Positions 21,001-27,000 of a DNA stretch of 64,000 nt are shown in pieces. The position numbers were made by a program. The DNA lies in NCBI RefSeq assembly GCF_044324785.1, contig NZ_CP172127.1, one strand, 5' to 3'. How positions within the stretch are numbered: the stretch's first letter is position 1; each line of letters starts with the position of its first letter. The stretch comes from Escherichia coli. GTDB lineage: Bacteria > Pseudomonadota > Gammaproteobacteria > Enterobacterales > Enterobacteriaceae.

Positions 21001-24000
21001 TTAAAATCCAAAAAATACAAAAAGATGATAACATTAGCGATGAAGTCCTTGAAAATATCACTTCTGATTTCTTCATAAAAGCAGACACTTCAATTAATTA
21101 TTATGTTACGCGTCAAAATGATTATAACTACGTATTCTCTACAGGCAGGACACCACGCTTCATATGTATTACTCACTAACAGCATTGTTGCTCCTGGCGT
21201 TTGTCACGAGTTAATAGCATTCTGATTGCTTTGTTTATACTTTAAGACAATAAAATACCATTCTAATATAAGGTGATTCTTTATCTGTTTATATACCACT
21301 GATAAAACTCTGTCGCTTTCATTGGTTTTGCATATAAGTATCCCTGAACTAATGTCACGTTATTATGAATAAGATATTCTGCCTGGTGAGGAGTACTGAC
21401 ACCTTCTGCAATCGTTATCAAATTTAGTCGATTACTCAGCTTAATAATAATATCTAAAACTGGCGTTTCGTCTTCCGCTGTAGTGAGTGTGTCTATAAAG
21501 CTTTTATCTATTTTAAGATAATCAACAGACAACTTTTGTAGAAGGCCAAGTGAACAATATCCCGTGCCAAAATCATCAACTGCAAATTCACAGCCATGGA
21601 TCCTTAATTCATTTATTTTCTGTAATGCAAGATCAGTATCTTCAACCAGATTGCGTTCGGTAATCTCAAGGACAATGTTAAATTTATCAGATATTGCATT
21701 TTTAATATGTAAAACATCAGCAACAAAATCAGGATGTGCAAGATGTTCCGCGGCAATATTTATCCCAAGGTGAAACGGTTTTTTCACTTTCCAGCTTTGA
21801 ACATCCTGAATAATCAGTTCAAAGAGATGCTTAGTTAACGGTATTATTAAATTTTCCTCTTCTGCAGCGCGGATAAAAACTACCGGAGATATATTTTTAC
21901 CATCTTCGCGTTGCCAGCGCATTAACGCTTCAACCCCCAGACACGCTTTGGTTGTCGTGTCGCACACTGGTTGATAATGCACAGAAAATTCTCCGGATGA
22001 CATTCCTGTTTTAATTTCTTCGGCCAGCGACATTTTCCGTGACATCCAGTGCTGCCATAAGAAATAGAGAATAAAAGAAAGAATAATAGATAACGGCAAA
22101 ATATAAAACACATTGCTAATGATATAGGGATATAACGAAATCATCGGCGTAGTAACTGTAAGACGAGCCTGACTGATCGCAGAATTAAAATCTTTTTTTA
22201 ACATATACAACCTGTCATTATTATTTACACCACTAATAATTGCAGGCCCTTCAGTAAAGCGAAGAGAAAATGAATCATCATTCTCATCATCAAGAACATC
22301 CATTAGATCATAGATATATCGTGACTCTACAATACTAAAAGCTGTCATATCATTCCCTATTGGCATAAGGAACACTATTGCTGTTTTACCTGGCACAAAA
22401 CTTGTACCGCTAATTGATACTATACGTGATTCTTTATTTTTATTGTGAAAGCTCGTACCGTAAACATCGTTAACATTCATTTTTTTGAAACCGCTAACTG
22501 AAGAACATATTTGGAAATTATTTTCTATAAGACCCGTTGTTCGAACATAGGGAGTCAATGCTCCGTTAGCAATCAATTGTTCCAGGATATCTTTGCAGGG
22601 TTTCATCACCAGAATAGAAGTAAGCTTTGTCGTATGTTTGACAATTTGCGTAACATTATCAAGCTGTTTTAACAAAATACCGGCGGTAATTGTCGTATCT
22701 CGATTCATTTGAAATATTGACATAGCAAACGATAGTAACACCCCCAGAATGCCTGGTATTATAATGAGTACAAACATTTTTTTGTTGAATACCATACATG
22801 TTTCCCCACGCATCAGGGTGATGCAACCTAAGAAATTATAGTACAATTGCCAGTAAAAGCGGGTGATAGCAGACTGATCAATGATAAGCATTTAAGATCA
22901 TATAGTACTATGATATTTCTGAAAATTGTTACCCATGTCTGCGAATAGCTATTTAGCGCTTACCAAAATCACCCGCTAAAATGCCGCTTTATGGTGACTC
23001 ACAAAAATTCACCACATCCCTCACAACCACCTTATTACGCCCGGTCTCTTTCGCCTCGTATAGTGCGTTATCAGCCAGTCGATAGATCTCATTCGGGTTT
23101 AACGCATTTTCCTGAGTCACAACAGCGCCAATACTAATCGTCACTTTTTGTGGTATGGCGTATTCAGGATTATCACCAGTTAAACGCTCAACATTTTCCC
23201 GAATCCTTTCCGCTAAAGCTTTCGCACGTTCAGTATCGATGTCCGTCAGCAAGACGCCAAACTCTTCGCCGCCGACGCGTGCTAAAAGGTCATCTGGTCG
23301 TGGGGAGAAAATGCACCAGCTCCCCAGTTGAAAGATAATCCGTCTATCTCCATTATCATTCCCTGTTTTAATGAGGAGAAAAACGTTGAGGAAACCATAC
23401 ACGCCGCTTTAGCACAGCGTTATGATAACATTGAAGTTATTGCCGTAAATGACGGTTCAACAGACAAAACCCGTGCCATCCTGGATCGCATGGCTGCACA
23501 AATTCCCCACCTGCGGGTCATTCATCTGGCGCAAAACCAGGGGAAAGCCATTGCGCTTAAAACCGGAGCTGCCGCGGCGAAAAGTGAATATCTGGTGTGC
23601 ATTGATGGCGATGCGTTATTAGACCGCGATGCGGCGGCATATATTGTGGAACCGATGTTGTACAACCCGCGTGTGGGTGCCGTAACCGGTAATCCTCGTA
23701 TTCGAACACGTTCTACCCTGGTGGGTAAAATTCAGGTTGGCGAGTATTCCTCAATTATTGGTTTGATCAAGCGAACCCAGCGTATCTATGGAAACGTATT
23801 TACCGTTTCTGGTGTTATTGCCGCATTTCGTCGCAGCGCCCTGGCAGAAGTGGGTTACTGGAGTGACGATATGATCACCGAAGATATTGATATTAGCTGG
23901 AAGCTGCAGTTGAATCAGTGGACGATTTTTTACGAGCCACGGGCGCTGTGCTGGATATTAATGCCTGAAACGTTAAAAGGGCTGTGGAAACAGCGCCTGC

Positions 24001-27000
24001 GCTGGGCTCAGGGCGGTGCAGAAGTATTCCTCAAAAATATGACAAGGCTATGGCGCAAAGAAAACTTTCGAATGTGGCCACTGTTTTTTGAATACTGTCT
24101 GACGACAATATGGGCCTTTACCTGCCTGGTCGGTTTCATTATTTACGCAGTCCAACTTGCAGGTGTACCGTTAAATATTGAATTGACACATATCGCTGCG
24201 ACACATACTGCCGGAATATTATTGTGTACGTTATGTTTACTGCAATTTATTGTCAGCCTGATGATCGAGAATCGCTATGAGCATAATCTGACTTCATCGC
24301 TTTTCTGGATTATTTGGTTCCCGGTTATTTTCTGGATGCTGAGCCTGGCAACGACATTGGTATCATTTACACGAGTCATGTTGATGCCTAAAAAGCAACG
24401 CGCCCGTTGGGTAAGTCCCGATCGCGGGATTCTGAGAGGTTAATATGAACAATTTAATTATTACGACCCGACAATCGCCAGTACGTTTAATGGTTGATTA
24501 TGTTGCCACAACCATCTTATGGACATTATTTGCTTTGTTCATATTCTTATTCGCCATGGATCTGCTGACGGGTTATTACTGGCAAAGCGAGGCCAGAAGC
24601 CGACTTCAGTTCTATTTTTTGCTGGCAGTGGCGAATGCCGTCGTGTTAATTGTCTGGGCGCTGTACAATAAGCTGCGTTTTCAAAAACAGCAGCATCATG
24701 CAGCCTACCAATATACGCCGCAAGAATATGCAGAGAGCTTAGCAATACCTGATGAGCTCTATCAGCAACTACAAAAAAGCCACAGGATGAGCGTACACTT
24801 CACCAGCCAGGGGCAAATAAAAATGGTTGTTTCAGAAAAAGCGCTAGTCCGGGCATAAACACCCAAAACAAAGCCCGGTTCGCCCGGGCTCTGCACCGAT
24901 AATACACTTAACTGTATGCATGTAGCGTACGTTGGCAAAGTGCCGAACGTACGCAATCCTCTTTACCGAACCGGACGATCCCAACCATTTCATCTTCTTC
25001 GAAACGTTCCAGCGCGTCACTTAATCCGGAGCGCACGCCGCGAGGCAAATCGCATTGCGTGATATCACCGTTGACGATAACCGTCACGTTCTCCCCGAGG
25101 CGGGTTAAAAACATTTTCATTTGCGCGGCAGTCACATTCTGCGCCTCGTCAAGAATGACGACTGCATTTTCAAAGGTACGTCCACGCATATAGGCGAACG
25201 GCGCGATTTCCACCTTCCCTATTTCCGGTCGCAGGCAGTACTGCATAAAGGAAGCCCCTAAGCGCCGAACCAGCACGTCGTAGACCGGGCGAAAATAGGG
25301 AGCAAACTTTTCTGCGATATCACCAGGTAAGAAGCCAAGATCTTCATCGGCTTGCAGAACTGGACGGGTGACGATAATCCTGTCGACATCCTTATGTATC
25401 AGGGCCTCTGCCGCTTTTGCTGCGCTGATCCAGGTTTTTCCGCACCCGGCTTCGCCCGTGGCGAATATCAGCTGCTTACTCTCAATAGCCTTCAGATAGT
25501 GCAATTGCGCTTCATTTCGCGCGAGGATGGGCGAGGTATCGCGACTGTCGCGGGCCATACCAATGGCTTCTACGCCGCTCATCTGCACAAGCGAGGTGAC
25601 CGATTCTTCTTCACGCTGCTTATGGCTGCGCGAATCCCGTCTCAGCACACGTTTTGCCTCGCGACGAGCTTTGATCACTGCTTTTTGTCTTCCCATGGAG
25701 AGCACCTTGAGTTGTTTGTATTCATCACACGCGCCGTTGGCAGCGCGATTATGCGCACGAACATCAGAGGGTTGGCTTCCTTGTAAGCCATAGTTTGCTT
25801 TTGGATAAAATGCCGAAAAACGGCTACGCGCACCGTTTACGGCGTCGGTAACACATGAAAAGAAAGGATGAGGTTGAAAATACAAAGTGACGAGATGACT
25901 ACCGGAGGAGAAATCTCCGCGAGTGGTGGCGCGCTGATTATCTAAAACATGTCCAGTACAGGACGTTACCATCCGCGATCTCCATAGTGACTGACTATCA
26001 CTGCCGGGAACTTCCGCTGCTACTTAATAATTACAACAGAACTCGCATTCATTGCAACAATATATTCACTTATATTTAACGATAAACACCCATTTCGGTG
26101 ACATTAGTTTCTACTGGAAAGATGACAGAGTGATGACAGAGATGAAAAAAGCTGTGTGCTTTCAGCAGGATTCGCAGTGCTGGTAAAAGCTTGCCGGATG
26201 CGGCGTGAACGCCTTACCCGACCTACAAGTGATTAATAATTTGTGCACCAAACTCATGCCCGATAAACCTGCGCATCGGGCATATTTGCGTCGTTCAAAC
26301 CTGTAATAGCGCCCTTCCCAGATAATCGTTCGCGTCCTTCACTCCCGGCAGCGAAAAAAAATAACCGCCGCCGATAGGTTTAACGTATTCCTCCAGCGCT
26401 TCGCCATTGAGCCTTTTTTGTACTGTCAGGAAGCCTTTTTCCAGATCGTGCTGGTAGCAAACAAACAGTAGCCCCATATCCAGTTGTCCGGAGTTGGTGA
26501 CGCCCAACGAATAACTGTAGCCACGACGCAGCATCAGGCTGGACTCACTCTCCGCCGTGCGGGGATTCGCCAGCCGGATATGGCTGTCCAGCGCAATCAC
26601 CTTCCCCTCCGGATCGCTGGCGTAATCGGGAACATCATGCTCATGCTGCATTCCCAGCGGCGCACCGGTTTGTTTGTCGCGACCAAAAATCGTCTGCTGT
26701 TCTTTCAGCGGCGTTCTGTCCCAAAATTCCACTCGAAACTGAATCAAGCGTACTGCCTGATAGCTGCCACCTATTGTCCACGCAGGCTCCTGCTGATCTG
26801 CCGTTACCCACACCACTTTTTGCATCAACTTATCATTCTGGCTATCGGGATTGGCAGTGCCGTCTTTGAAACCCAGCAAATTAATCGGCGTCTCTTTGCC
26901 TTTACTACGCGCCGCGTGATCGGAAATAAACCCTTCCCGCTTCCAGCGCACACTGAGCAAATCCGGCGTGTGTTTGATGATATCGCGCAGCGCATGGATC

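Follow-up and report, generated by a model that had tools for sequence, protein, structure and literature searches.

A 6.26-kb deletion joining remnants of dgcT and pgaC in Escherichia coli, probably formed at a short direct repeat

What has become of the pgaABCD operon, and of the diguanylate cyclase gene dgcT (ycdT) that borders it, in this strain of Escherichia coli? In the window, by which we mean the whole 64-kb stretch of DNA analyzed here (64,000 nucleotides of contig NZ_CP172127.1), a 3' remnant of dgcT is joined directly to a 5'-truncated pgaC, with an intact pgaD and then phoH behind it. Comparison with E. coli K-12 by BLAST and tblastn bears out the claim of an initial annotation that truncated ycdT abuts truncated pgaC here, and what we find is a real, cleanly defined and ordinary gene-loss allele. 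Taking the account as a whole, we consider it very probable that a single short-homology deletion produced this allele, that the remnants are non-functional, that loss of both poly-β-1,6-N-acetyl-D-glucosamine (PGA, or poly-N-acetylglucosamine, PNAG) and DgcT is to be expected, and that the allele is inherited vertically; the mechanism and the phenotype are the parts that we infer. The elements at the junction are the following.

23294..23301, no strand assigned: the deletion junction, one kept copy of a short direct repeat, CTGGTCGT, with a perfect overlap of CGT at 23299-23301

22989..23301, minus strand: the dgcT (ycdT) 3' remnant, consisting of the stop codon and codons 350-452 of 452, with 98.5% DNA identity to K-12 dgcT

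23295..24443, plus strand: the pgaC remnant, codons 60-441, whose first in-frame start is a TTG at 23328

24445..24858, plus strand: pgaD, full length, 137 aa, 99.3% identical to K-12 PgaD

22989..23402, minus strand: a chimeric 137-aa open reading frame (ORF) with a GTG start, in which about 34 codons of antisense pgaC are fused in frame to the dgcT remnant

How clean is the join, and how much has gone? Against K-12 MG1655 (locus L003), BLAST matched window positions 22978-23301 to the 3' end of dgcT and 23294-24700 to pgaC from its nucleotide 177, with the two matches overlapping by 8 bp at the join. The crossover lies within 23294-23301, and its first placing (near 23295-23305) was accurate. 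Base-by-base alignment assigns each junction base to the dgcT or the pgaC flank, leaving no filler, and neither this alignment nor BLAST found any mobile-element sequence or insertion sequence (IS) remnant at the junction in the window, consistent with the early reading of a scarless join. On either side the sequence runs collinear with the intact locus, and what is missing is one contiguous block, 6259 bp long relative to K-12 and 6263 bp relative to the closest intact relatives, 2012C-4221 (L004) and MEW (L005). Within the block lay pgaA and pgaB together with dgcT codons 1-349 and pgaC codons 1-59, as well as the divergent promoter region between dgcT and pgaA, including the pgaA leader; blastn finds no match to the deleted 6.25 kb within the window. 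The K-12 alignment thus defines both the breakpoint and a repeat matching at seven of eight positions, and it confirms that neither gene is full length and that the reading frames had been assigned correctly.

Do the missing genes survive elsewhere? With the K-12 proteins as queries, tblastn found no match to PgaA or PgaB anywhere in the 64-kb window. A query with added pgaA and pgaB probes recovered no displaced copy in N3, the closest complete genome: it matched one place in N3 versus three in typical genomes, and a single matching place means that N3 carries no displaced pgaAB. The absence of pgaA and pgaB relative to the K-12 gene order, which the initial annotation had reported, therefore holds in the window and likewise in N3, and pgaAB located elsewhere, the finding that would have overturned that report, was seen in neither. 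The product of pgaA is an outer-membrane porin and that of pgaB acts in deacetylation and export. Of the components of a functional pgaABCD operon, pgaD is present; pgaA and pgaB are absent, as are a full-length pgaC with its start, the promoter and the leader. PGA production requires all four pga genes according to Wang 2004 and Itoh 2008 (as cited in PMC4287979 and PMC5635171), so the prediction that this strain is PGA-negative and DgcT-negative is sound, and on the strength of published genetics we expect it to be negative for both PGA/PNAG and DgcT.

What do the remnants keep? With the K-12 protein as query, tblastn aligned DgcT residues 348-452 in the window, of which 350-452 are truly dgcT-derived. 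In full-length DgcT, Pfam places the MASE4 domain at residues 41-274 and the GGDEF domain (PF00990) at 282-439. Beginning with the Arg of the RxxD I-site, the remnant retains RxxD and GGEEF, while the MASE4 membrane/sensor domain, the first ~68 GGDEF residues, the start codon and the promoter are gone. It is, as had been proposed, a GGDEF fragment without the rest of its domain, and the N-terminal third of GGDEF carries metal- and guanine-binding residues in characterized domains. The complete GGDEF and MASE4 domains needed for an active diguanylate cyclase DgcT are absent from the window and, with dgcT codons 1-349 deleted, the adjacent diguanylate cyclase is indeed lost.

On the other side of the junction, tblastn across the window aligned PgaC 60-441 and PgaD 1-137 at 99-99.5% identity to K-12. 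The pgaC remnant retains the GT2 domain (residues 75-299) and the C-terminal hydrophobic segments, and the loss of the N-terminal membrane segment and ATG noted at the outset is confirmed: residues 1-59, which comprise two N-terminal hydrophobic segments, are missing, and with them the start codon and every expression signal upstream. ORF listing gives a TTG-initiated plus-strand frame at 23328-24443, whose 371 aa are PgaC without its N-terminus. For PgaC the PDB holds no structure; a search of it brought up distant homologues of the GT2 family alone, BcsA and hyaluronan synthase among them. The gene pgaD is an orphan, now without a functional partner or promoter. In the window both the pgaC remnant and pgaD are still open reading frames. 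Other carriers of the junction show further decay, namely deletions of 1, 9, and 82 bp in the pgaC remnant and a frameshift in pgaD, which fits pseudogene status: carrier loci L012, L014, and L024 have the three pgaC-remnant deletions at window-equivalent positions 23670, 23770-23778, and 23903-23984, L013 has pgaC-remnant deletions at 23777-23785 and 23903-23984 and lacks the gap at 23670, and L015 has a 1-bp deletion in pgaD at 24717.

The chimeric 137-aa ORF is best read as an annotation by-product of the deletion, and it can be used as an exact-match marker of this junction. Its public annotation is inconsistent: in many assemblies it is labeled 'diguanylate cyclase' or 'GGDEF domain-containing protein' (WP_322147050.1, WP_077779182.1), and in N3 the region is a pseudogene. 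We also considered a functional role for this ORF, given that RxxD and GGEEF are kept, and set the idea aside as unsupported, as promoter and ribosome-binding-site evidence is wanting, the N-terminal third of GGDEF is gone, and N3 carries the region as a pseudogene.

How far has the allele spread? Some part of the queried dgcT-pgaC segment is present in 4,401 of 5,426 complete E. coli genomes, and among these 5,426 the junction is spanned by N3 only. N3 is 99.5% identical to the core region of the window, all other complete genomes reaching at most 98.0%, and to the left and right of the junction alike it has single-nucleotide polymorphisms (SNPs) in common with the window. Both N3 remnants are called as pseudogenes by the Prokaryotic Genome Annotation Pipeline, that of dgcT as 'incomplete; missing N-terminus'. 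In a large protein/assembly collection, the exact chimeric ORF occurs in 209 contigs and the exact PgaC remnant in 268, and the window's exact variant of PdeT, encoded next to the dgcT remnant, occurs in 487 index blocks, with the deletion in 25 of the 25 contigs read. Three carriers (L006, L008, and L009) are 99.98% identical to the window, and several hundred public assemblies contain the deletion allele. The allele is shared with N3, at about 0.5% divergence, and with near-identical assemblies in the hundreds, which places the window in a well-sampled lineage that is fixed for the deletion and inherits it vertically. Beyond the species, the exact junction, queried as a 28-mer with Y at the polymorphic base, is absent from 100,044 GTDB species representatives and from Joint Genome Institute (JGI) metagenome contigs, a search that says nothing on prevalence within E. 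coli.

What could have joined the two genes? The sequence CTGG(T/C)CGT occurs in dgcT codons 349-352 and in pgaC codons 59-62, with the two copies 6.26 kb apart. The dgcT-side copy reads CTGGTCGT in the window and K-12 and CTGGCCGT in 2012C-4221, MEW, and 33F4; the pgaC-side copy reads CTGGCCGT, and three-way alignments give a match of 7/8 in the window/K-12-type allele and 8/8 in the 2012C-4221/MEW-type allele. In simulated junctions between dgcT and pgaC, a 7/8 stretch touches a random junction with P = 0.0026, and a perfect 8/8 match is found there with P about 1e-4. The locus thus has what a short-homology deletion leaves behind, namely collinear flanks, a repeat at both ends of the missing block with one copy kept, and neither filler nor mobile element. 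A repeat above chance expectation, together with the absence of filler and of any IS, is the signature of short-homology illegitimate recombination. From an ancestor with the arrangement pdeT-dgcT<>pgaABCD-phoH, one illegitimate recombination event would have joined the two 8-bp copies of CTGG(T/C)CGT in dgcT and pgaC, keeping one copy and removing all DNA between them, by either replication slippage (template switching) or microhomology end-joining. Its products, a promoterless and start-less pgaC, an orphan pgaD, and a GGDEF fragment without its N-terminal third, would be non-functional, and the allele would have passed vertically through this lineage. The repeat core, TGGCCGT or TGGTCGT with the break after the first T, seems to fit the core of the DNA gyrase cleavage consensus (reportedly described by Lockshon and Morris in 1985), which is only a lead as to why this pair of repeats might be prone to breakage.

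Several points weigh against this account. The perfect overlap in the window allele is only 3 bp (P = 0.054 in the simulated junctions), which is unremarkable alone, and it is the 7/8 or 8/8 stretch on which the argument for homology-guided joining depends. Intact dgcT and pgaC also share words of equal or greater length, such as the 10-mer AATGACGGTT in K-12, so that repeat length alone cannot explain the choice of this pair. A displaced pgaAB copy is excluded for N3 only, the search in the strain studied here covering the 64-kb window, and the PGA-negative phenotype is a prediction.

Did the deletion happen once or several times? Variants of the chimeric ORF keep the same chimeric N-terminus, and therefore the same junction, yet differ on both sides of it, and the carriers fall into three groups whose flanks differ by 1-9%. 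Group A consists of the window, L006-9, L019-20, and N3; group B of L010, L011, L015, and L021-23, including CP057500.1; and group C of L012-14 and L024-25. At positions 23280, 23283, and 23298, group A has T, T, T, group C has C, T, T, as does K-12, and group B has C, A, C, as do 2012C-4221, MEW, and 33F4; the groups differ also at 23320 and 23321, on the other side of the junction. A block of four SNPs at 24048-24098, found in groups A and B, was considered as a marker of the deletion haplotype and rejected, being a common allele among intact genomes, 494 of which have it.

The reading that fares best, to which we give about even credence, is that the deletion arose once, long ago, and had its flanks replaced afterwards through homologous recombination with intact strains, in tracts that end at the junction as a heterology boundary. 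The junction is identical in all carriers, and the deletion is fixed in each group: every context read for the groups' exact PdeT variants has it, and none of those contexts places the group A, B, or C variant beside an intact dgcT-pgaA. The region also recombines heavily, with island alleles up to 9% apart even among intact strains. Near the endpoints, searches for inverted repeats or extended homology gave chance-level short matches only, and without hotspot structure in the intact locus, and with many equally good repeats available, repeated use of the same pair is a priori unlikely. Against a single origin stands the lack of any derived allele that is common to all carriers and absent from intact strains. 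Between groups, carriers agree without a mismatch over just 10-13 bp on the left side of the junction and 10-124 bp on the right, far less than the runs that carriers share with intact genomes (560 bp on the left for L010 and 2012C-4221; 796 bp on the right for L015 and 33F4). In addition, two sites that lie 38 bp apart on opposite sides of the junction show every one of the four possible combinations of alleles, and a single origin needs several recombination tracts to have ended within 3-20 bp of the junction.

The same observations can be taken to mean that the 6.26-kb deletion happened on two or three separate occasions, each time at this 8-bp repeat, which would then be a natural hotspot, perhaps with selection that may act against PGA and/or DgcT in these lineages; we hold this to be possible, clearly short of an even prospect. 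Next to the junction, each group has the haplotype of a different intact allele, on the left as on the right; no core haplotype is shared, and the four-gamete pattern extends across the junction. In the group B background the repeat matches at every position (8/8), pga has been inactivated independently elsewhere (by IS1A in strain 200088 and by a stop in pgaA in strain 06-00048), and in Salmonella loss of PGA is argued to be adaptive (PMC5464674). However, 8-bp repeats 6.3 kb apart are expected to recombine very rarely, neither inverted repeats nor extended homology flank the endpoints, and dozens of alternative 8-10-bp repeat pairs exist. Nor was any sporadic recent carrier found nested among near-identical intact genomes; the best intact sisters of groups B and C among the 5,426 complete genomes reach only 98.6% and 97.5% identity, too distant to date or separate events. 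If recurrence is true, it amounts to convergent loss of PGA and DgcT at a rare natural repeat-bounded deletion hotspot in bacteria, and it implies unrecognized site-specific breakage or strong selection. If recombination onto one old deletion is true, imported tracts can extend all the way to an insertion/deletion boundary.

Could an IS have been involved and then lost? An IS1-type adjacent deletion has precedents at this locus, since in strain 200088 IS1A separates stubs of dgcT and pgaC, and IS1 is found in the dgcT/pgaA intergenic region of enteroaggregative E. coli (EAEC) 55989 (PMC4287979). The window junction, however, has neither an IS nor a partial IS end nor extra bases, and clean loss of an IS that left the join inside a native direct repeat would require a second, exact event. 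The breakpoints of 200088 differ as well, its pgaC beginning at the equivalent of window position 23400 and its dgcT stub being longer, which makes the 200088 deletion independent of the event in the window. We regard this route as highly improbable. An assembly or sequencing artefact has nothing specific in its favor and is of negligible probability, as the same junction is present in the finished genome N3 and in hundreds of independent assemblies (NCBI, ENA, Logan), with lineage-specific SNPs around it.

Two further lesions of the locus were seen along the way. Strain 200088 (NZ_CM128592.1; L002, 8012-10261) has lost the segment from the 5' part of dgcT through pgaA and pgaB to the 5' part of pgaC, with IS1A separating a dgcT stub that is longer from a pgaC stub that is shorter than in the window, and it is the only IS-associated case found. 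In strain 06-00048 (NZ_CP015229.1; L018, 12445-14868), pgaA is annotated with an internal stop and dgcT-pgaABCD is otherwise intact.

How does the single short-homology deletion that we favor for the window compare with what is known? The pgaABCD-ycdT segment has been called a 'region of genomic heterogeneity' in E. coli and its attrition is documented (Goldstone et al. 2016, PMC4951805; Cimdins et al. 2017, PMC5635171), including absence of the whole pga locus with ycdT in commensal and uropathogenic strains (PMC5635171). These reports concern gene presence and absence or whole-locus absence and give no breakpoints, whereas the window offers an exact junction with dgcT and pgaC truncated, set in a pdeT-island context rather than the IS3/ymdE/ycdU context of K-12. 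IS1 and frameshift lesions of ycdT/pga have been described in EAEC 55989 (Richter et al. 2014, PMC4287979). In EAEC 55989 and 200088, as in the window, the same two transcription units, dgcT and pgaABCD, are hit, and 200088 also keeps a dgcT 3' stub, the 3' part of pgaC, and pgaD; those two strains have IS1 at the junction and other breakpoints, unlike the window. In EAEC 55989, moreover, the intact pga genes may be over-expressed, whereas in the window pga is truncated. In Salmonella, the whole of pgaABCD was lost before the genus diversified, and the loss is argued to be advantageous in the host (Echeverz et al. 2017, PMC5464674). The expected outcome, no PGA, is the same in Salmonella and in the window, but Salmonella has no described remnants and the window does.

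As mechanistic parallels, lacI deletion hotspots reportedly fall at short direct repeats (work attributed to Farabaugh in 1978 and Albertini in 1982), and the 4977-bp 'common deletion' of human mitochondrial DNA shows that an identical repeat-bounded deletion can recur. Like the window, these lacI and mitochondrial short-repeat deletions keep one repeat copy, have no filler, and have collinear flanks; the window differs in that its repeat is only 8 bp (7/8) with copies 6.3 kb apart, and RecA-independence and recurrence are not claims that we make for it. Our literature searches found no description of this junction. Attrition of pga-ycdT is already published and the N3 remnants are already flagged as pseudogenes, and what is new is a breakpoint-resolved example. 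Several hundred sequenced isolates of this lineage should be PGA/PNAG-negative and have one diguanylate cyclase fewer, which bears on biofilm phenotyping and on anti-PNAG vaccine and antibody coverage, and for annotation, a 137-aa by-product of a deletion is widely deposited as 'diguanylate cyclase'.

What surrounds the locus? The immediate neighbors of the junction genes are these.

21281..22891, minus strand: pdeT (vmpA), an intact gene for a CSS-motif/EAL cyclic di-GMP phosphodiesterase, directly downstream of the dgcT remnant

24908..25696, minus strand: phoH, the conserved right-hand neighbor of the pga operon

The order on the right, pgaD-phoH-efeBOU, is the same as in K-12. On the left lies an accessory island (a fimbrial operon, an SDR oxidoreductase, a winged-helix regulator, and pdeT/vmpA) instead of the IS3/ycdU of K-12; this island is present in about 400 complete genomes, and vmpA/pdeT is found downstream of ycdT in EDL933 (PMC4287979). 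In N3 (L001, 1-1313 and 6383-7992), the fimbrial usher and pdeT are annotated as frameshifted, and in the window the two ORFs are intact (13689-16211 and 21281-22891).

Further to the right, 25830-25957 and 26226-26297 are variable patches upstream of phoH and between phoH and efeB, respectively. The first holds 25 SNPs within ~130 bp, splitting the window, K-12, and 2012C-4221 haplotype from that of N3 and MEW, and looks like a small recombination patch; the second, a stretch of ~70 bp that aligns to none of the references used, looks like a variable intergenic element. Between efeU and putP, 2.5 kb at 29752-32267 is absent from K-12 and present in many other strains, and it includes a 447-aa ORF (30777-32120) with no Pfam hit on record. 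At the other end of the window, a gene for a ShlB/FhaC-family (TpsB) transporter (4712-6331, minus strand) is cut short at codon 140, where a stop replaces the Gln of 2012C-4221, and the adjacent 1270-aa TpsA gene of the two-partner secretion pair (6420-10232) is still open; judged from its sequence, the TpsB secretion partner looks inactivated in this strain.

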